A stretch of DNA of 64,000 nt from the NCBI GenBank assembly GCA_964558375.1, contig CAZLCD010000001.1, forward strand, positions 209,160 through 273,159, read 5' to 3'. Below are positions 1 to 44,101 of this stretch, piece by piece (positions within the stretch are counted from its first letter, which is position 1; every line of letters starts with the position of its first letter). A program made the translations under genes and the position numbers. Under the pieces are notes generated by a model. The model had not been told where the DNA came from, made no database searches, and worked only from the letters and a program-made list of their open reading frames with translations. The DNA is from an uncultured Candidatus Saccharibacteria bacterium. Its GTDB lineage: Bacteria; Patescibacteriota; Minisyncoccia; Phycocordibacterales; PALSA-1337.

Positions 1-3000
1 CCGGTTTTCAGGTAATTGATATCTCAAATCCCGTTTCCCCAACTCTTGTTGGAACATATGCTTCTGCTACTAATGCTGAAGGGATCTATGTTTCTGGTAA
101 GTACGCCTATGTAACCAATTCTACAGATTTTGTTATATTAGATATCTCAAATCCTGCATCTCCATCGCTTGTAGGGACATATGTCAGTCCTTCGGACGCT
201 ATCGATGTCTACGTATCCGGCAAATATGCATATGTTGCAGATGATGCTGGTTTACTCATTATTAATATCTCAAATCCTGCATCTCCATCGCTTGTAGGTA
301 CACAAACGACAAATGCTTACTCTGTCTTTGTTTCAGGTAAATATGCATATACAGCTTCTGGTTCATCTGGTCTAAAAATCCTCGACATCAACGGTATCGA
401 AACCCCATCCCTATACGCAGGTAACATAGAGACAAACGTACTAAACGCTACAGAAAACATAATCGCAGGAGGAGATATATATGCTCAAGGAGGTCTAAAT
501 GTCGGTATCTCCGGTATCTTCTCTAGAGGTACTATCTCTGCATTTATAGCTTCTACTACTCAGACTAATCCAGTAGTTGCTACATTTATGGGAGGTAGTG
601 TAGGAATCGGCACCACCACTCCATACTCAAAACTTTCTGTCTGGGGATCTTCGAATGGCACAGCTCGACTTTTTGAACTTACCAATTCTGCTTCCACAAC
701 CCTAGCTTCTTTCTTAGAAAACGGAACAGGTTATTTCCTAGGAAATATCGGAGTTGGTACAACATCTCCTTATGCAAAGCTATCTGTTGTCGGCCAAGCT
801 GTAGCTGCATACTTCACTGCAACCACTTCTACCGCTTCCACTTTCCCTTATGCTTCGACCACAGCTATCACTTCTAGTGGTTCAGCATATTTCGGAACTT
901 CATCTGGTGGAGTATTGATCGGCACTACTACAGCAACTTCAACTTCCAAACTCACACTTGCCGGTGGAAACTTTTTACATACAGCAGTGGGGAATCCGAC
1001 ATTGAAGGGATCATATAATACAACAGGTGATGCTCATGATGTGTTCGTCTCTGGTAAATATACTTATATTGCTGATGGTGGCTCAGGACTTCATATCATA
1101 GACACTTCCAATCCTGGATCACCGGTTCTTATAGGAACTTACAATACTTCTAGTTTTGCTTACGGTGTTAAAGTGTCCGGCAAATATGCCTATGTTGCGG
1201 ATTATAGTTCTGGTCTTAATATCATCGATGTTTCAAACCCAACAGCACCTACTCTTGTAGGAATATATAATACAAGTGATCATGCATATGATGTGTATGT
1301 TTCCGGAAAATACGCTTACGTTGCGGATGATGGAACAGGTCTTAATATTATTGATATATCAGATCCAACAACACCAACTCTTGTCGGAACATATAATACA
1401 TCTTCTGGTTCCCAGGGTGTGCAAGTTTCCGGAAAATATGCTTACGTTGCGGATAGTTCATCAGGTCTCAATATTATAGACATATCAAATCCAACAGCAC
1501 CTTCTTTGGTTGGTATATACGATACTGGAGATGCTTTTGACGTTTATGTTTCTGGTAAGTACGCATATGTGGCAGATTTTCTTGGTTTGAAAATTGTAAA
1601 TATTTCCAACCCTGCTTCACCTTCACTTGTGAGTACATATAGTCCTATTACTATACCCGGTGTAGTTGATGGTATTTATGTTGCTGGTAACTACGCTTAT
1701 ATAACAGTTGATGATGAAAGTTCGGATTCAGGTCTAGTAATTGTAAATATCTCAAATCCTGCATCACCATCACTAGTTGGAACTTATAATGTTGCTGGTG
1801 CATCAGATTTTCTAACTCATGACGATGTTTTTGTTTCCGGAAAGTATGCATACATGGCAAATGGAGCTGCCGGCCTCCAAATAATAGACATCAACGGTAT
1901 CGAAACCCCATCCCTATACGCAGGTAATATCGAAACCAATGTACTCAACGCTACAGAAAACATAATCGCAGGAGGAGACATATATGCTCAAGGAGGTCTC
2001 AATGTAGGAATCTCAGGTATCTTCTCTAGAGGAACTATCTCTGCATTCATCGCTTCTACTACTCAGACAAATCCTGTAGTTGCTACATTCATGGGAGGTA
2101 ATGTGGGTATCGGAACAACATCTCCATGGCGTACTCTTTCTGTAACTGGTTCATCTGATCTTGGTAACAATGCTCTAGCTGGATACTTCACTGCAACCAC
2201 CACAGCTACCTCAACCTTCGGAGGCTCTCTAGCTGTAACAGAAACCAATGCCACTTCAACTTTTGCAGGAGGTATAGACCTCTCTGATGGATGCTTCGCT
2301 ATTGATGGAGTGTGTCTAAGTGTAGGAGGAGGAAGTTACGGAGACACAAACGTTAACTCCTACATCCACGCTTCTAGTACAATCCCAAAGACATATACTG
2401 CGAATACTTTTACAGCAGATCAAACATTTAGTGGATCAATCGTAGCAAATGGAGCTATATATGCAAATAATCTATATGGAGGAAATGCTGCTGTGACTTG
2501 GAACGGAGCAACAGCTCTACCGATAAACCAATTTAACTTTAATTTTGGTAATAATGCTCTTGCATATACATCAGGAAATGGAGGAGTGTTTAAAATTGCT
2601 GCTGCTTATAATCAGACTGGTACCGCTGCCAACACTGATCTTTTAATAAGTAGAACTGAAACAGCGATAGGATCTGGATTGCAATATTTAATCGATGCAC
2701 AAGTGGGTAGCGCAAGTAAATTCAATGTAACTAATACAGGTCAAGGATATTTCCTAGGTAACCTAGGAATCGGAACAAGCTCCCCATATGCGAAACTTTC
2801 TGTTGTCGGTCCGGTAGTTGCTCAATATTTCCATGCTACCTCTACAACAGCGACAAGTACTATCGGTGGCTCACTTGTTGTCGGTGGCCCAAGAGTCTTT
2901 TCTGGCTATTCTGTAACTGGCGGTCTTGGAAATATCGCGGCTGGTGATGCTCAAGCTGGTACAGCTATCAATGCGTCTGGTCAAGGTGCTTTTGCTTACG

Positions 3001-6000
3001 GTCAGACGACCTCATCACTTGGAGGAACCTCACTCATTCTTTCATCAGGTCAGGGTAGTTTGGCGGGTGGTCGGACAAGTGGTATTTTCGGATCAGCAAC
3101 CACCACATCATCTGGAAATGGTTCAATCGCTTGGGGGTATGCTGAGTCTGCAGGTCCAGGTACTTCCGCCAACCTAACCTCTTCCGGCACAGGTTCTATT
3201 GTTCTTGGTGCAGCCTCTAACAAGAATCTAACCTCTTCTGCTATAGGTTCATTTGCTGGTGGTTATGCAAGTGCTGGTAATATTCTTTCTTCTGCAGATG
3301 GTGCGTTTGCATTCGGAGATAACATCACAGCTTCTGCTGCACTTTCCACTGCCTTCGGTTCTGGGTTTACAAACAACACTGCAAATAGCTTTATGGTTGG
3401 TTATGGTTCAACTCCAACTCTTACAGTAGATGCTACAAATGTAGGTATCGGTACCACATCTCCATATGCAAAACTTTCTGTTGTTGGCCAAGCTGTCGCT
3501 GCATACTTCACCGCTACTACTTCCACCGCTTCTACTTTCCCTTACGCTTCTACTACAGCTATTACTTCTTCAGGTTCTGCGTATTTTGGAACTTCATCTG
3601 GTGGAGTATTGATCGGTACAACCACAGCCAACTCAACCTCAAAACTCACCCTAGCAGGAGGAAACTTCATACACACAGCTGTCGGTGACCCGACATTGAA
3701 GGGTACATACAACACACCCGGCACTTCTGGTGGGGTATATGTCTCTGGTAAATATGCTTATGTAGCAGACGGTACATCTCTTCAAATTATTGATATATCA
3801 AACCCAGCATCACCAACTTCTATAGGATCATACGCATCTTCTGGATCAATATTTTCTGTATCCGTCTCTGGTAAATATGCCTATGTTACAGTATCTGATT
3901 TACTAGGATCTTTTTTAATTATTGATGTTTCAAATCCAGCATTACCAACACTTGTTGGTTCAGCAATTACTAGTAGTGATGTATCTTATTCCTATGTTTC
4001 TGGAAAGTATGCATATGTTTCTGATAATCTTGCTGGACTAAAGATTTTTGACATTTCAGATCCTAGATCACCAAGTCTTCTTTCAACATATGCTCCAGGT
4101 ACTGAGAATACGGGTGTATATGTTTCTGGTAAATATGCATACATTGCAGATAGTTCATCTGGTATTCAAATCCTAGATATTTCAAATCCAGTCTCACCGT
4201 CTTTGATGGGAACATATAATACTAGTGGCGCAGCTCTCGGTATATATGTTTCTGGTAAATACGCATATGTTGCAGATGGTAGCTCAGGTCTACAGATTGT
4301 AAATATCTCTAACCCAGCCTCACCGGCTCTTGTTGGAACATATAATACTACTGGAACCGCCTATGATGTTTACGTCTCTGGAAGATACGCATATGTTGCT
4401 GATGATACCTCAGGCGTCCATGTTATCGATGTCCTAAACCCAGCTTCGCCATCTCTTGTAGGAACATACAATACATCAGGCAATGCTGCTGGAATATATG
4501 TCTCTGGTAAATACGCATATGTAGCAGATAGTGCCTCCGGCCTCCAAATCCTCGACATCAACGGTATCGAAACCCCATCCCTATACGCAGGTAATATCGA
4601 AACCAACGTCCTCAATGCCACAGAAAACATAATCGCAGGAGGAGACATCTATGCTCAAGGAGGATTAAATGTCGGTATCTCTGGTATCTTCTCTAGAGGA
4701 ACTATCTCAGCTTTTATAGCTTCTACAACTCAGACAAATCCTGTGGTTGCTACATTTATGGGGGGGAATGTGGGAATTGGAACTACCTCTCCATGGCGTA
4801 GACTATCTGTAAATGGTTCATCAGATCTTGGTATAAATGCTCTAGCTGGATACTTCACCGCTACTACTTCCACTGCTTCTACTTTCCCTTATGCTTCGAC
4901 CACAGCCATCACTTCTTCAGGTTCTGCTTATTTTGCTACTACTGGTGGGAATGTGGGAATTGGAACAACTTCACCTTATGCAAAACTTTCTGTTGTCGGT
5001 CCGGTAGTTGCAGAATATTTTAATGCTACAAGTACAAATGCGACTTCTACTTTCCTGGGAGGGGTCGCTATAGGTGGACCATTTAGAGGACAAGTAAGTC
5101 CATACACAAGAGTAGAATTTTCTGATCCTACTAGTGGTTATTATTCTGATTGGAGTTTTGATCTAGCTGGAGGCGGATCAGGTGCTATTAATTTTGGTTC
5201 ATCTGCTGGTACATATGCCTCTAGAAGTGTGAGAACACTTACCCCTTCTGTTATAGGTACATATCTATATAACACACTAGGATCAATGATCAGTCGTACT
5301 TGGGACGGAACAGCTTTTAAAGAATCATCAGCTATTTCATTTGAATACGATGCAGCTTTAGGTACCAATGATGTTCCTGGAGCTATATCTTTCTATACAT
5401 CCGCAGATGGTACTGCTACCCCTCGAAACCGTATGATGATTCGTAGTAGTGGAAACGTCGGTATCGGTACAACTTCTCCTTATGCAATACTCACTACCTG
5501 GGGAACTACTACAGGCAAAATCTTTGAAGCTGTAACTTCTGCTTCTACTACAGCTCTCTCTATCTCTGCTACAGGTTTTGCAACTACTACTGTATCTGGT
5601 CTAACAATTGCAGGATCTGCTACCTCTACATCCAATGTAGGCTTCAATCTTTCCGGAGGATGTTTTGCGGTCAATGGTACTTGTGTAGGAGGATCTTCTT
5701 CTGGTTCAAGTTTTGCATACCCATTTACCCCAACAACTAACTATAGTTCAACCAATCAAGCAACAACAGGTATAGCATGGTTCCAGAATGGTATAAATGC
5801 ATCTTCAACATCACATTTTGTAAATGCTTCTACTACCATGATATCTGTAAATGACTTACTCATCAGTAGTCCAGTGGCTAACAGTTTGTTTGTAGGTACA
5901 GATGCTGGTATGGGTGCAACTAGTGCTCTCAACTCACACTTCATTGGATATAATTCTGGTAATAGCGCTACCAATGCTTATGAAGCTAACTTTATCGGAA

Positions 6001-35278: not shown

Positions 35279-35352
35279 GCCATCTTAGCTCAGCTGGTAG
35301 AGCAACATTTTTGTAAAATGAAGGTCCCCGGTTCGATCCCGGGAGATGGCTC
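35279..35352 (+). tRNA. tRNA-Thr (anticodon UGU)
   Basis: The cloverleaf was folded by hand. Acceptor GCCATCT/AGATGGC, D-arm GCTC-AGCTGGTA-GAGC, anticodon loop TT-TGT-AA, T-arm CCCGG-TTCGATC-CCGGG. CCA is not cleanly encoded (CCCA). Confidence 0.8.
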
Positions 35353-39090: not shown

Positions 39091-40353
39091 ATGAAAAAAA
39101 CCTTATTTCTTATTGCTTTTGCGATAGTATTCGTTGCTGTAGTCCCTTCAAAAGTTGAGGCTGGATGTCTTGTTTTCTGCAAGAAAAAGAAAGTTACCGA
39201 AGTAACAAAGATTGTTATAGGTAGTAATGTAAACTCTCCAAATTCTACAGTAGTTAATAACACTGGTACTCCAGTTGTTGTGGCTAATCATACTCCTTCT
39301 TATGACTATGATAATGACTATCGTACTCTAGGTGCTTCTTGTTATTCCAACCCTACAACAGGTGATGTGGGTGATACTATACATTGGAGAGCTTCCGTAT
39401 ATGGTGGAAATGGTGATTATAATGTAACTTGGTCTGGTACAAATGGTCTTGATGGTGATGGTACTAGTATTACAAAAAGATACAATTCTCCAGGTACAAA
39501 GAACGCTTCAATCAGAGTACGTTCTGGCAGTCAGACTCTTACTAGAAACTGTAATAGTGTAATAATCTATGATTATGACAATAGATACAATGATCGTGAT
39601 GACGATTACTACGATTACGACGATGATTATTATAGAAACACACCTCTTCTAGTTTCTTGTTCTGTAAACTCAAATTTTGCTCAAATCGGATCTAGTGTAA
39701 CTTGGCAATCATATGTTTCTGGTGGTAATGGAAGTTATCGCTACACTTGGGATGGTAGTGATTATCTAAGAGGAAGTTCTAGAAATGTGAGTGTCTCTTA
39801 CAATTCTAATGGTGTAAAAACCGCATCTGTCACTGTACGTTCCGATGGTCAGAGTGTAACTCAATCATGTTCAAATTCTATAACTGTAGGTACTGCAAAT
39901 AATCAAAGTAACAACAATTCAGGTCTGCAGACTGCTTGTTATCCAGACAAAACTACTGCTCGTATAGGTACTCCTGTGACATGGTATGCAGAAGCTGTAG
40001 GTGGATCAGGAAACTATACTTATGCATGGTCAGGTTCAGATGCTCTATATGGCAATCAGGTCTCAACTATTAAGACTTATGGAAGTGCTGGTACTAAAGT
40101 TGGTAGTGTAACCATCACCGCTTCAAATGGTCAGTCTACTGTTCAGTCTTGCAGTGGTTCAGTATATATTCAGGGTGACACAGTAGTAAGAGCTGCTCCG
40201 GCTAATACAGACAATAATTCAAACAATGGTGCACTTACCGCATCTTCACTATTCTCACTTTCAAATGTTCCATGGGGATGGGTAGTGGTGCTTGTAATAA
40301 TGTTGCTTGTAGCTACAATTATCTATCTAGTGATTAATAAGAATAAGATATAA
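39091..40353 (+). CDS. cell-surface protein: signal peptide, three ~90-aa Cys-bounded Ig-like repeats ('V.W...V.GG.G.Y.Y.WSGSD'), Asp/Tyr-rich linker, C-terminal TM anchor
   Basis: 'MKKTLFLIAFAIVFVAVVPSKVEA' is the signal peptide. Three repeats are of the form 'C(Y)...G..V.W...V.GGNG.Y..TW.GS......S......G.K.ASVTV.S.GQS.TQSCS'. The C-terminus is 'WGWVVVLVIMLLVATIIYLVINKNKI'. Confidence 0.7.
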   Translation: MKKTLFLIAFAIVFVAVVPSKVEAGCLVFCKKKKVTEVTKIVIGSNVNSPNSTVVNNTGTPVVVANHTPSYDYDNDYRTLGASCYSNPTTGDVGDTIHWRASVYGGNGDYNVTWSGTNGLDGDGTSITKRYNSPGTKNASIRVRSGSQTLTRNCNSVIIYDYDNRYNDRDDDYYDYDDDYYRNTPLLVSCSVNSNFAQIGSSVTWQSYVSGGNGSYRYTWDGSDYLRGSSRNVSVSYNSNGVKTASVTVRSDGQSVTQSCSNSITVGTANNQSNNNSGLQTACYPDKTTARIGTPVTWYAEAVGGSGNYTYAWSGSDALYGNQVSTIKTYGSAGTKVGSVTITASNGQSTVQSCSGSVYIQGDTVVRAAPANTDNNSNNGALTASSLFSLSNVPWGWVVVLVIMLLVATIIYLVINKNKI

Positions 40354-40389
40354 AGAGGGAGGGAAGGTGTTTGCTTAAGATAAGCTCAG

Positions 40390-40417
40390 AAAAGACCCTA
40401 GGAATAGGGTCTTTTCT
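40390..40417 (+). terminator. intrinsic terminator of the 39091 gene
   Basis: 'aaAGACCCTAggaaTAGGGTCTtttc' has an 8-bp stem, a GGAA loop and a T-run. Confidence 0.7.
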
Positions 40418-40433
40418 ATTACCCTATACTACT

Positions 40434-40462
40434 TGACAAGATGTATAGTAATATGGTAGTAT
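40434..40462 (+). promoter_or_regulatory. sigma70-like promoter (TTGACA-N17-TAGTAT with a TGG extended -10) heading a ~350-nt unannotated transcription unit
   Basis: 'TTGACAagatgtatagtaatatgGTAGTAT'. The same 'TTGAC(A/T)...TGGTAGT(A/C)T' architecture recurs at 42635-42662 upstream of the DUF218 gene. Confidence 0.45.
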
Positions 40463-40489
40463 GTAGGAGTATAAGGAAAGGACATTGAT

Positions 40490-40615
40490 ATGAACAAACT
40501 AGAGATTAGCCTCGCGCAGAGTAGGTGGGGACGAGTCGTCCTACATCTAATCTGTATGGCAAGATGCCATAGGGTGCAACTGCACCTCGCTGGAATTCGT
40601 AGAGAATTCCGATAA
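40490..40615 (+). CDS. candidate small basic protein (41 aa) preceded by AAGGAAAGGA
   Basis: 'MNKLEISLAQSRWGRVVLHLICMARCHRVQLHLAGIRREFR', hand translated. It is not in the ORF track because it is under 60 aa. A second micro-ORF lies at 40708..40773 ('MIELPDGTLATYEEWKTLVGR'). Confidence 0.25.
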   Translation: MNKLEISLAQSRWGRVVLHLICMARCHRVQLHLAGIRREFR

Positions 40616-40779
40616 TTTTCAAGAGGTATCCGTGATGATTTCCTGAATAATTCATGGGGGTGTATCTTGACCCATTGTAAACAAGATTTTTCTGAAAGGG
40701 AAAAAATATGATCGAATTACCTGATGGTACTTTGGCCACCTACGAAGAGTGGAAGACACTCGTCGGAAGGTGACTAGTT

Positions 40780-40819
40780 GGGCGCGCTCCGTTGTATCGA
40801 GCCGCCCTTTCTTTTTGCC
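40780..40819 (+). terminator. GC-rich intrinsic terminator oriented for plus-strand transcripts, abutting the thrS stop
   Basis: 'GGGCGCGCTCcgttgtatcGAGCCGCCCtttcttttt'. There is no T-run in the minus orientation. Confidence 0.55.
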
Positions 40820-40824
40820 AAAAT

Positions 40825-42576
40825 TTACTTTCTCTCCGCTATTTCTTTTGATATCTTTTCAATAACTTCAGTTGAATCCAATTGACCTATTTGTCCAGCG
40901 TCACGACTTTCGAGAGTGACTTTACTTACAGCAAGGTCTTTGTCGCCAATTATTATAAAGTATGGAGCACGAGAGACTTTGGCTTGGCGAATCTTTTTAC
41001 CGAAACCTTCGTCAGAAAGATCTATTTCTACTCTGACCATTTTTTCTTTCAAAGTATCGTATATTTCTACAGCTTTTGCATGATGAGCTTCGCCTACCGG
41101 AATTATTTTGACTTGAGTTGGAGAAAGCCAGAGAGGGAAATTGCCTGCTGTGTGTTCTATATAGACTGAGATGAATCTTTCAAGTGAGCCAAGTAGGGCC
41201 TTATGGATCATAACTGGTCTTTTTTCTTTTCCATCACTATCTACATATGAAAGGCCGAATCTCTCTGGTTGGACAAAGTCTAATTGTATCGTAGCGCATT
41301 GCCATTCACGTCCTAGAGCATCAGTTACTAGATAGTCGAGCTTAGGTCCATAGAATGCTGCTTCGCCGATTCCCGGAATTGTTACCAAATTTTCCTCCTT
41401 AGATACTTTTGAGATGGTATCTTCTGCCCGCTTCCATGTTTCTTTGTCTCCTAAGAATTTATCAGAATCATCTCTAAATGAAAGTCTTACTTTATAATCC
41501 AATTTTAGAGCAGAATAAAGTTCTTTGATCATACTGATGAGATTTCTGATCTCATCTTCCATGTGAGTTTCTTGGCAGAATATATGTCCATCATCTTGAG
41601 AAAGAGATCTTACACGAGATAGTCCATGAAGTTCTCCATGCTTTTCATCGCGATAGTTTGTGGTATTTTCCATATAACGCACAGGAAGCTCACGATAGCT
41701 CCATGGTTTTCTTGCGAAGAGTTGAGCATGATGAGGGCAGTTCATGGGTTTCAACATAAAAACATCTGTACTTTCAGCACTCGTAACTTCAAAGCGTTCA
41801 GGATACTTGTCATAGTGTCCGGAATGTTTATAAAGTTCTGTTCTTGCCATATGTGGTGTCCATACTCTTTCGAAGCCATGCTTTGCTTGAAGTTCTTGAG
41901 AATATGATCCCAAGACATCTCTTAGTACACAACCTTTTGGAGTAAACAGAGGAAGTCCACCACCTACAAGTTCTGAGATGGTAAAGAGATCCAATTCTTT
42001 TCCTAATTTTCTATGATCTCTTTTTCCCGCCTCTATCTTCATAGTTTCATAATCATCTAGCTCGAGTTTTGTAGGGAAAGCTAGTCCATAAACGCGAGTG
42101 AGCATGGTGTTATTTTCATTACCCCTCCAATACGCTCCAGCAACTCTTGAGAGTTTGAAGGAGTCATGAGCTATTTCTTTTGCGGGGTTCTCAACATGTC
42201 CACCTCGACAAAGATCAGAAAAATTACCACAAGTGTATATTGTAATCTTTTCACCTTTAGCGACTATCTCTTCTATAAGTTCTAGTTTATAAGGATTATT
42301 TTTAAAGGACTCTCGAGCTTCTTCCGCACTTATTTCTTTGTGGGTAAACTTAGTCCAACTTTTTAAAAGGCCCTTCATCTTTTTTTCTATAGCCGGCAAT
42401 TCTTTCTCAGAGAGCTTCACATCTGCAGGGAACTCGAAGTCATAGTAAAAGCCATTATCAATAGCTGGGCCTATTGTGTTTTTTGTGCCTGGATAAAGTT
42501 CATTGACTGCAGCGGCTAGTAAATGGGCAAGGGTGTGGCGTATATTATTTAAGTTTTCAGGTTGATTATTTGACAT
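40825..42576 (-). CDS. thrS: threonine--tRNA ligase (begins at the N2 editing domain; the N-terminal TGS/N1 domain is absent)
   Basis: 'NIRHTLAHLLAAAV', 'IGPAIDNGFYYDFE', 'CRGGHVENPAKEI' and class II motifs such as 'FRDEKHGELHGLSRVRSLSQDDGHIFC' are present. Confidence 0.9.
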   Translation of the reverse strand: MSNNQPENLNNIRHTLAHLLAAAVNELYPGTKNTIGPAIDNGFYYDFEFPADVKLSEKELPAIEKKMKGLLKSWTKFTHKEISAEEARESFKNNPYKLELIEEIVAKGEKITIYTCGNFSDLCRGGHVENPAKEIAHDSFKLSRVAGAYWRGNENNTMLTRVYGLAFPTKLELDDYETMKIEAGKRDHRKLGKELDLFTISELVGGGLPLFTPKGCVLRDVLGSYSQELQAKHGFERVWTPHMARTELYKHSGHYDKYPERFEVTSAESTDVFMLKPMNCPHHAQLFARKPWSYRELPVRYMENTTNYRDEKHGELHGLSRVRSLSQDDGHIFCQETHMEDEIRNLISMIKELYSALKLDYKVRLSFRDDSDKFLGDKETWKRAEDTISKVSKEENLVTIPGIGEAAFYGPKLDYLVTDALGREWQCATIQLDFVQPERFGLSYVDSDGKEKRPVMIHKALLGSLERFISVYIEHTAGNFPLWLSPTQVKIIPVGEAHHAKAVEIYDTLKEKMVRVEIDLSDEGFGKKIRQAKVSRAPYFIIIGDKDLAVSKVTLESRDAGQIGQLDSTEVIEKISKEIAERK

Positions 42577-42727
42577 GGTTTTTATCGATAGTCATAACTT
42601 TAGCATTTTAAATAGAATGTGTGGAGGGGTTGACTTATAGTTTTTACGTGGTAGTCTCAAGGAGAATTTCTGTAAGTGAAGTAATTCATAAACCGTTCTT
42701 AAACAACTAAAAACATGGGGGTGAATT

Positions 42728-43285
42728 GTGCGTACCGTAATTGCAATTATTGCAGCAGAGTTGAGTCGTTCAAATACTGGTAAAGTAATTCTTGGTCCAG
42801 AGACCATTGCTGTCTGTAATAATGCTCTTGATTATCCAGCAGATCTTTTGGTGAAAGCTTTTATGGGTAATGTCGAAGATCATGTAATACTTGGCGATTA
42901 TTATTATGCCGTGATGGCATGCAAACCGCCAAACCAAACTGATGGTCAGCCGATGTGTGAGCTAATGAAGAAATACCTTATGTCTAAGGGGGTTGAAGAA
43001 GGGTGGATCTTAACCAATGTCGCTACACATTTCCACACCAATGGAGAGCTTGGTGCACTAGCTTCGCTAGTCGAAGAGAGAAAATTCGACAGAGTAATTA
43101 TTGTTGCACGTTGGTGGCATATGCCAAGAGTTAAGTTTTTGTGGTTATTTCATCAAATTCATTTCACTCGTAAAGTGGAGGAGGTCTTTGTAAACGCTCC
43201 ATCTAAATATTGGGTGAAGATTTTCACAGACCCAACTCTCGGCATTATTCATAATATCTTCAGGTGGTTAGTTAAAGGACACTGA
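42728..43285 (+). CDS. DUF218 (YdcF/SanA/ElyC-like) domain protein, GTG start
   Basis: 'RVIIVARWWHMPRV' resembles the conserved 'HMPRA' motif of DUF218. Moderate confidence. Confidence 0.5.
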   Translation: MRTVIAIIAAELSRSNTGKVILGPETIAVCNNALDYPADLLVKAFMGNVEDHVILGDYYYAVMACKPPNQTDGQPMCELMKKYLMSKGVEEGWILTNVATHFHTNGELGALASLVEERKFDRVIIVARWWHMPRVKFLWLFHQIHFTRKVEEVFVNAPSKYWVKIFTDPTLGIIHNIFRWLVKGH

Positions 43286-43470
43286 AGACAATTCGTCAAG
43301 CTCTGCGTGCATCAGCAATGGTGTCGCGGGGCTTTTTATTTACTTTTTTAAATTTTATTTTGTAATAAATTTATATTGAACTTTTCTTACCATTAGACCG
43401 TTGCAATATATAGCTATTTAAAGTTATTAAGATTTGATAAAGATTTTGTGGGTTTATTATGGTTTTTCTA

Positions 43471-43500
43471 TTGCTTAAGTTTATGTAAATAATTTATAAT
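43471..43500 (+). promoter_or_regulatory. sigma70-like promoter TTGCTT-N18-TATAAT upstream of 43531..44076
   Basis: 'TTGCTTaagtttatgtaaataattTATAAT' lies 30 nt before the ATG. Confidence 0.45.
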
Positions 43501-43530
43501 GACTTCACTTAAGTAAATTATCAGACACTA

Positions 43531-44076
43531 ATGAAAAATAACATTATGAATGAAACAGAACCATTGTATATAAAGAAATTACGAGAACATATAGACTATA
43601 AGATAGAGACTCAGGAACCTAAGTATTTTAAGGAGTTTAGAGAGAGCTTAGAAACACATGAGCCAAAGTACTTCAAAGAGTTTAGAGAAAGCTTAGAAAC
43701 ACATGAGCCAAAGTACTTCAAAGAGTTTAGAGAGCACATAGACCATAAGATAGAAACTCATGAACCTAAGTATTTTAAGGAGTTCAAGAAAGAGATAAAG
43801 GATCATATAGATAACAAGATCGATGAAGTTTTAGTATCTACTGCGGGAGAATTTAGAAGAATTGATGAAAAATTTGATAAAATTGATACCGAGTTTGAGG
43901 GAGTTAATAACAGACTAGATAGACTAGAATCTGACGTGGTGGAAGTTAAAGAAAGTATAGGTAAAATAGAAGGTCATATAGGTAGATATGAAGTCAGGGC
44001 TCAAAATATAGAAGCAATTTTATTGGAAGATCATAAACCAAGAATAATCCAGTTGGAAAAAGAAGTTTTTGCCTAA
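43531..44076 (+). CDS. hypothetical coiled-coil protein with four tandem 15-aa repeats ('HEPKYFKEFRESLET')
   Basis: A 45-nt perfect tandem DNA repeat at about 43634-43723, with a heptad-like C-terminus. Confidence 0.6.
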   Translation: MKNNIMNETEPLYIKKLREHIDYKIETQEPKYFKEFRESLETHEPKYFKEFRESLETHEPKYFKEFREHIDHKIETHEPKYFKEFKKEIKDHIDNKIDEVLVSTAGEFRRIDEKFDKIDTEFEGVNNRLDRLESDVVEVKESIGKIEGHIGRYEVRAQNIEAILLEDHKPRIIQLEKEVFA

Positions 44077-44101
44077 ATATCTTTTTGCTTTTTTCAAACT
44101 C

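Follow-up and report, generated by a model that had tools for sequence, protein, structure and literature searches.

We examined a unit of about 400 bp in a 64,000-nucleotide (nt) stretch of an uncultured Candidatus Saccharibacteria bacterium (assembly GCA_964558375.1, contig CAZLCD010000001.1, positions 209,160 to 273,159 of the forward strand), a member of the candidate phyla radiation (CPR); this whole stretch is called the window below. Its thrS, gyrB and other neighbouring genes put it in the CPR/Patescibacteria, near Paceibacterota. The unit, an accessory gene cassette that is self-contained, lies between a gene for a PKD-domain surface protein and the convergent threonyl-tRNA synthetase gene, thrS. 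As a preliminary description of this DNA had remarked, no gene is called in the interval; this also holds for the public contigs of identical sequence (L001 and L002). Sequence comparison identifies the first open reading frame of the unit (ORF1) as a real, missed gene of 41 amino acids (aa) from a large family that matches no Pfam, NCBIfam or PHROGs model; its translation in this organism is predicted. Near-identical strains differ in whether they carry the cassette, which occurs with two deeply diverged ORF1 alleles between conserved flanks. The features of the locus, in window coordinates, are as follows.

39091–40353, plus strand: left neighbour, a PKD-domain surface protein of 420 aa anchored at its C-terminus (Pfam PKD_4, E 9.6e-7)
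40388–40417, both strands: bidirectional terminator hairpin of the PKD-like gene, a 13-bp perfect inverted repeat
40422–40820, plus strand: the whole unit, ~400 bp, an insertion/deletion polymorphism; boundaries approximate
40433–40462, plus strand: sigma70-type promoter, TTGACA at 40433–40438, an 18-nt spacer ending in TGg, TAGTAT at 40457–40462; it belongs to the conserved promoter arm of the unit, which contains TACTTGACAAGATGTATAGTAATATGGTA
40473–40482, plus strand: Shine-Dalgarno (SD) sequence of ORF1, AAGGAAAGGA, 7 nt before the ATG, as read from the sequence
40490–40615, plus strand: ORF1, 41 aa, MNKLEISLAQSRWGRVVLHLICMARCHRVQLHLAGIRREFR, member of an undescribed small-protein family
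40529–40606, plus strand: family core of ORF1, residues 14–39 (26 residues), GRVVLHLICMARCHRVQLHLAGIRRE, core hidden Markov model match E 5e-13
40616–40707, plus strand: structured spacer or 3' untranslated region (UTR), with the hairpins CCGUGA...UCAUGG and GGGU...ACCC and one that holds the SD of ORF2
40708–40773, plus strand: ORF2, 21 aa, MIELPDGTLATYEEWKTLVGR, with an SD-like stretch upstream; a doubtful gene
40780–40817, plus strand only: intrinsic terminator, GC-rich hairpin 40780–40807 and U-tract 40808–40817
40825–42576, minus strand: right neighbour thrS, convergent with the unit, stop codon at 40825–40827

The preliminary description had proposed a discrete promoter-to-terminator module, and all the features that it described are present. 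The near-consensus promoter starts at 40433 rather than 40434 and has a spacer of 18 rather than 17 nt; it scores 10/12 and carries an extended -10. A local scan found 9 promoter-like sites where 8.9 were expected from shuffles. The unit promoter is credible not because of its score but because it is kept in the second carrier strain, L089, with TAATAT as its -10; L089 also has an SD, GGAAAGGA, at the same position as that of the window ORF1. The terminator hairpin folds at -15.8 kcal/mol; behind it the plus strand continues with UUUCUUUUUG, the minus strand with AACU and without a U-tract, which bears out its proposed plus-strand polarity. Upstream of the unit, the hairpin at 40388–40417 folds at -19.8 and -19.6 kcal/mol on the two strands, has a U-run on both, and is conserved in L083, L091 and L089. 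Both SD-preceded micro-ORFs translate exactly as had been quoted, and the GC enrichment is present but modest (43.9% in the unit and 48.4% in ORF1, against 39.3% in the window).

The linkers of the left neighbour are rich in Asp and Tyr (YDYDNRYNDRDDDYYDYDDDYY), and a membrane anchor lies at its C-terminus. Its size and organisation differ among related strains, where it has 420, 421 or 427 aa or is split into 334 + 217 aa.

The junctions of the unit were compared in contigs of relatives graded by thrS identity. The unit is present in L001 and L002, which are identical in sequence, and in L089 and L090 at ~90% nucleotide identity, and it is absent from L091, L083, L084 and L085. Its absence thus extends to the closest strain, L091, whose PKD gene is 97.8% and whose thrS is 94.8% identical in nucleotides; the thrS proteins of the other three are 93% (L083), 87% (L084) and 86% (L085) identical. 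The empty site of L091 reads ...GGGTCTTTTTTATTGGC followed at once by TAAATTTACTTTCT, so that the terminator at 40388–40417 directly abuts the thrS stop codon, and L083, L084 and L085 have the same arrangement. Where the unit is present, it is flanked only by imperfect T-rich direct repeats, CTTTTCTATTACC and CTTTCTTTTTGCC, each being the tail of one of the two terminators. An inverted-repeat search, with the ends read by eye, found no terminal inverted repeats at the unit ends, and the 64-kb window holds no second copy of the unit. A transposon and a miniature inverted-repeat transposable element were rejected for this lack of terminal repeats and for the single copy in the window; judged by terminal inverted repeats, a clean target-site duplication or attC, and copy number, the unit does not fit an integron cassette either. 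When the unit was compared by nhmmer and blastn with 80 thrS loci from genome contigs (thrS identity <=58%), only self matches were returned; tblastn and blastn against phage and plasmid collections gave no match, and an exact DNA pattern from the 3' half of the unit was not found in viral contigs.

A second indel hot spot lies across thrS, at window positions 42550–44100, with a DUF218 gene (42728–43285) and a gene for a 181-aa protein (43531–44076) that carries tandem HEPKYFKEFRESLET repeats. L089 lacks ~42550–44100, and there dnaE abuts thrS; L091 lacks 42646–43325, the segment that holds the DUF218 gene.

The two alleles differ unevenly along the unit. Identity between the window and L089 is 76% in the promoter and 5' UTR, 55% in ORF1, 87% in the spacer, 95% in ORF2 and 87% in the terminator, against a genome background of ~90%. 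The ORF1 peptides can nevertheless be aligned (window ...SRWGRVVLHLICMARCHRVQLHLAGIRREFR, L089 ...ERFGRISLHLACVSRDHKWSWHWAGILREIR), with 16 identical residues in 31 aligned C-terminal positions, 9 of the 16 being encoded by different codons. It was this combination of divergent codons and identical residues that first pointed to a real gene in ORF1. Within the 26-residue core the two CPR alleles share 14 residues; the L089 core is identical to the soil members L130 and L132 at 22 of 26 positions, and the best match of the window core reaches 17 of 26. Diversification by a diversity-generating retroelement was rejected, the allele differences not being adenine-specific; no reverse-transcriptase gene lies beside the unit, although no search directed at reverse transcriptases was made.

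The homologues of ORF1 are numerous. A profile built from the two alleles retrieved five proteins of 36–62 aa from among 5.8 billion (E 7e-11 to 1e-7), and a scan of metagenome contigs gave 94 relatives, of which 80 loci were fetched and examined; these are mostly from soil, with 53–66% GC, and two are low in GC. A HMMER search of 1.84 billion representatives yielded 725 clusters (50% identity) at E<=1e-3, 54 of them at E<=1e-10, and a k-mer search with a 118-sequence profile added 198 further matches. The window peptide is 37–59% identical to members of the family. Their sources give no other name than 'hypothetical protein'; the stated origins are Verrucomicrobiae or Opitutaceae and, in one case each, Methylomirabilota and Haliangiales metagenome-assembled genomes. 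The named members are mainly soil Verrucomicrobiota. Searches of Pfam, NCBIfam and PHROGs with both peptides and with family members gave no match, nor did a PDB sequence search or Foldseek against PDB, and a literature search on the motif strings and on small proteins of Verrucomicrobia and CPR bacteria returned nothing specific.

Two leads towards known proteins were discarded. An ankyrin-repeat relationship, suggested by an 'LHLA' motif and by a match of a shallow profile to a designed ankyrin (E 0.064), was gone with the 118-sequence profile, and there was no Pfam Ank match; a TraT 'fusion' in P0140 looks like read-through gene calling. Some members lie in unusual surroundings. The low-GC members L105 (GC 0.36) and L108 (GC 0.37) are found in tight arrays of small overlapping ORFs, which have no PHROGs match and whose arrangement is reminiscent of a mobile element. 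The single IMG/VR member (L174, 5010–5132) overlaps the start of a gene for a 206-aa unknown protein by 4 nt, and an ORF ~600 nt upstream of it is one that we take, by eye, to encode an IS66-family transposase.

The family core of 26 residues reads G-R-x2-L-H-x2-C-x3-D-x4-W-H-x2-G-I-x-R-E, and members are typically 36–65 aa long. Among 210 distinct cores, R2 and E26 are present in all 210, G22 in 209, H6, H19 and R25 in 208 each, L5 in 206, G1 in 205 and W18 in 195, followed by C9 in 182 (87%) and D13 in 178 (85%). I23 is also near-invariant in this set, and a weaker L-A-x4 motif stands just upstream of the core. Outside the conserved block of 26–36 residues, the N-terminus varies and the sequence that follows the core ranges from 1 to 110 residues. 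The window core keeps all eight of G1, R2, L5, H6, H19, G22, R25 and E26; among the near-invariant positions listed it departs only at W18 (Leu) and D13 (Cys). It is atypical in having V16, L18, L20 and C13, where L089 carries Trp at the first three of these positions and Asp at the fourth.

The family is under purifying selection at the protein level. When 61 distinct nucleotide cores are compared pair by pair, the three codon positions differ at 0.32 / 0.22 / 0.53; in the reading frame, 48.5% of the codons that differ encode the same residue, whereas the two shifted frames give 11% and 6.7%. This result holds at the level of the family; the window allele is known only as the identical copies L001 and L002. 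The coding regions of the family are no more structured as RNA than expected (mean z = -0.03 over 59 loci) and Rfam returned nothing on 20 family loci, so that the conservation is at the level of the protein and not of the RNA. The suggestion in the preliminary description of a pure, unknown non-coding RNA (ncRNA) is left without support by the hundreds of protein homologues and the coding selection.

The ORF1 peptide has an isoelectric point of 11.6 and no transmembrane segment by Kyte-Doolittle analysis, the maximum 19-residue mean being 1.09, below about 1.6. AlphaFold2 predicted one long helix when given six sequences; with 118 sequences it predicted helices at 12–25 and 29–40 with a break exactly at D-G-K, at low confidence (predicted local distance difference test, pLDDT, 64). 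We propose that the product is a soluble, strongly basic helix-turn-helix hairpin. In such a hairpin, D13 would mark the turn, and invariant residues would face each other across the two arms (R2/E26, H6/G22 and C9/H19). Tails rich in His occur in many members, and Cys4 and Cys9 are mutually exclusive across the family (Fisher p 2e-8, with the kinship of the sequences ignored). Because of the symmetric residues, the His-rich tails and the exclusivity of the two cysteines, we suggest that a metal, for instance Zn, probably stabilises the mini-domain.

One subfamily (L156, L158, L165, L166 and L173; GRSCLHL..A..GHWRWHLAGIRRE) has Cys4/His15 in place of Cys9/Asp13, and its genes always lie -4 to 66 nt downstream of a gene for a ~200-aa Fn3-like secreted protein.

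The genomic setting of the family varies from locus to locus. At many loci the small gene lies 0–80 nt upstream of a co-directional gene, and at least 11 loci have functionally unrelated co-directional downstream genes, among which are genes for a TolC-like OEP, an ECF sigma factor, thioredoxin, COX15, GH57, OsmC, transketolase, HlyD/MFP, PATR and DUF5122 proteins. Elsewhere the small gene is internal to an RND operon or last in its operon, and five loci have a Pfam-confirmed convergent downstream gene (TPP enzyme, PheA, LuxR, response regulator and bPH_2). In the window, ORF1 is a stand-alone transcription unit followed by the structured spacer with ORF2, the terminator and then the convergent thrS. 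The varied operon positions and the convergent neighbours speak for a small protein that acts on its own rather than for a leader peptide, although some members may be leaders, and the ORF1 product is accordingly one that we would expect to act in trans, binding a partner protein or nucleic acid. A Trp-attenuation leader was rejected, since the motif of the window allele contains no Trp and the genes that lie downstream have no connection with Trp.

In L099, paralogous copies of the small gene stand within 2 kb on opposite strands (1441–1575, plus; 2951–3268, minus), and L100 has the same arrangement. One copy follows a sigma54-activator gene and the other a large TPR-protein gene.

The RNA of the unit was also analysed. 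Over its full length the plus-strand transcript has a folding energy of -123.9 kcal/mol (z = -5.4 against shuffles; z = -3.8 for the minus strand). The window ORF1 coding region forms four near-perfect hairpins (-49.3 kcal/mol, z = -5.1 against dinucleotide shuffles), a stability that was not reached in any of 1000 synonymous recodings (mean -29.6, standard deviation 4.0). The L089 allele lacks this excess: its z is about 0 when compared with dinucleotide shuffles and -1.8 when compared with synonymous recodings. Two readings fit the structure and the divergence of the window ORF1: the allele may have been replaced by recombination between the two conserved arms of the unit, or selection for RNA structure may have remodelled it while keeping the invariant residues. 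In the minimum free energy (MFE) fold, the SD (AAGGAAAGG) pairs with the 3' tail (CCUUUCUUU). Because a U-tract is missing from the unit terminator on the thrS strand, transcription from thrS probably continues antisense through the whole unit to the hairpin at 40388–40417, as read from the sequence.

The stretch around ORF2 (40686–40776) contains three hairpins (z = -4.1), one of which holds the SD of ORF2 itself. Against L089, the spacer 40616–40707 has one G-U to G-C change that preserves the pair, and ORF2 has three differences (two in loops and one G-C to G-U) that are neutral to structure and frame. No homologue of ORF2 was found in the family libraries, nor in the fetched loci other than the copies of the unit, and none of the fetched loci held a homologue of the 3' half of the unit either. 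From the comparison of the two near-identical sequences, ORF2 is most likely just part of a structured 3' UTR; as a second peptide, which had been proposed, it has nothing beyond its SD to recommend it.

Known RNA families were not found at the unit. Rfam 15 at gathering score gave only tRNA-Thr (35279–35351) in the whole window, with no confident housekeeping-RNA match, and a permissive scan (E<=10) of 40300–40900 gave four matches with E 0.96–9.8, far below the gathering score. ARAGORN found no tRNA or tmRNA on the unit, and RNase P, tmRNA, 6S and SRP motifs were absent by eye. The earlier failure to match RNase P RNA, tmRNA, SRP RNA and 6S RNA therefore stands.

Several other explanations of the unit have to be set against a small-protein gene. 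The folding results bear most directly on a dual-function or locked mRNA of the type I toxin kind, in which the transcript would work as RNA besides or in place of the peptide, hairpins and SD/3'-tail pairing would block the synthesis of a harmful basic peptide and thrS read-through would serve as the antisense RNA. The extreme fold of the window ORF1, which no synonymous recoding reaches, the fold of the whole transcript and of the ORF2 region, the SD pairing in the MFE fold and the thrS antisense expected from the one-sided terminator all point this way, and the strain distribution is patchy, as is often the case for addiction-type modules. Yet the structural excess is limited to the window allele, with L089 and 59 family members lacking it, and in other phyla the family sits in ordinary operons. 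Most type I toxins have a transmembrane segment, which this peptide lacks, the minus strand within 40422–40820 was found to hold no antisense promoter-like site, and the SD pairing may be trivial, since any purine-rich SD complements the U/C tail of a terminator. We regard such a locked mRNA as rather unlikely. Of the candidates first named for the locus, the dual-function RNA thus keeps its real 41-aa Arg/His-rich peptide and an overstructured ORF1 and loses the conservation of that structure in the other allele and the family, and the small toxin-like module, with neither a membrane-spanning segment nor an antisense promoter found, stays speculative. If only the structured transcript of ~350 nt mattered and ORF1 were incidental, the unit would be a pure ncRNA gene; its discrete promoter and terminator, its strong folding and the silence of the automatic pipelines agree with this. 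The hundreds of protein homologues with codon-position and synonymous signatures of coding, the conservation of the peptide motif but not of the RNA hairpins between the two alleles, and the lack of an Rfam match at the unit or in 20 family loci make it an explanation to which we attach hardly any weight.

A different cis-acting role would be that of a leader or arrest peptide, with a stall at ...GIRRE controlling what lies downstream and the CPR copy being a transferred leader for ORF2 or the 3' RNA. The small ORF is often found 0–80 nt upstream of unrelated co-directional genes, the conservation is confined to a block of 26–36 residues whose 26-residue core is about as long as the ribosomal exit tunnel, and the W-x5-G-I-R spacing resembles what we take to be the SecM arrest motif, W-x5-G-I-R-A-G-P. 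Such a leader is improbable nonetheless, with a terminator and a convergent gene following ORF1 in the window, Pfam-confirmed convergent downstream genes at no fewer than five family loci, other members last or internal in their operons, and a window allele without the Trp residues of the putative arrest motif. The absence of the unit from the closest strain, the lost Trp residues and the best core match of 17/26 would also be expected of a functionless remnant, that is, a horizontally acquired fragment that drifts and is being deleted from the population. In both alleles, however, the ORF, its start codon and SD, the promoter and the terminator are intact and almost every invariant residue is present, and the 3' half is at or above the genome background (87–95% against ~90%), so we consider a remnant very improbable.

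The explanation that we favour, with moderate confidence, is that the unit is a small-protein gene cassette of a large undescribed family, horizontally acquired, whose product would be a trans-acting basic and possibly metal-binding hairpin. The ORF1 gene was probably acquired horizontally by the CPR bacterium, and the cassette, flanked by the imperfect T-rich repeats of the two terminator tails, would since have been gained, lost or exchanged by recombination. Its own promoter and SD would drive the 41-codon gene, followed by ~200 nt of structured 3' sequence and the plus-strand terminator. The product would be a soluble basic helical hairpin that acts in trans, perhaps with a bound metal; for the function of ORF1, this is our best guess. 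Several observations weigh against this explanation or parts of it. Conserved Trp residues are gone from the window allele, which has V, L and L in place of W16, W18 and W20 and could be drifting; the indel may reflect a gain or a loss, and the best core match to other family members is only 17/26. The predicted hairpin has low confidence (pLDDT 64–67), the cross-hairpin pairing and the metal site are drawn from spacing symmetry alone, and Cys9 and Asp13 are absent from ~13–15% of members, so that a fixed four-ligand site is not universal. The association of Cys4 and Cys9 takes no account of phylogeny, and the excess RNA structure of the window ORF1 points to an RNA-level role outside this explanation.

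A bolder combination of these elements appears unlikely to us. It would join a metal-binding hairpin mini-domain, encoded by promiscuously exchanged mini-genes, to a slot in CPR genomes in which alleles are swapped between the promoter and 3'-RNA arms, with an mRNA locked by its coding hairpins and by the antisense 3' UTR of thrS; the whole would be a new small toxin or regulator module, and its Verrucomicrobia-like sequence could hint at the host range of an episymbiont.

Together, our results turn an apparent orphan ncRNA locus into a missed small-protein gene that exposes a conserved family of at least 725 clusters, with a clear sequence signature that can be used for annotation. They also document fine-scale turnover of accessory genes in a reduced CPR genome, with presence, absence and allele replacement among strains that are 90–98% identical. 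The short family, with its invariant His, Cys, Asp, Arg and Glu positions, is easily synthesised and thus a tractable biochemical target.

Dual-function small RNAs that encode small proteins include SgrS/SgrT, RNAIII/delta-haemolysin and SR1/SR1P. The unit resembles them as a structured transcript of a few hundred nt with a promoter, a terminator and a small ORF, and differs in that it has no known base-pairing target or conserved RNA element, in that its RNA structure is not conserved between alleles whereas its peptide is, and in that the gene is an operon gene elsewhere. With type I toxin-antitoxin loci such as hok/sok, tisB/istR and aapA/isoA it shares a small stand-alone gene, a patchy distribution among strains, a folded mRNA, a possible pairing of the 5' SD with the 3' end and a possible antisense RNA; unlike them, it encodes a predicted basic, soluble peptide without a membrane helix, no dedicated antisense promoter was found within it, and its family occurs in normal operons. 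Regulatory leader and ribosome-arrest peptides (SecM, TnaC and MifM) likewise have a short ORF with a conserved block of tunnel length, often just upstream of diverse genes, whereas the window copy has no such downstream gene and several family members precede convergent genes.

On present evidence, the unit is not a new kind of system. In the GMSC survey (PMC11364881), the diversity of small proteins in microbiomes is described as immense and underexplored, and unannotated small-protein families are accordingly already known to be very numerous. GMSC-type small-ORF families (PMC11364881) are like the present one in being genes of <50 codons, missed by annotation, found in many metagenomes and without a domain match. 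The difference lies in the defined 26-residue core, the coding-selection test, the survey of genomic contexts and the cross-phylum indel cassette in a CPR bacterium; what is of moderate note is this particular family, its signature, the allele swap and the allele-specific mRNA structure.

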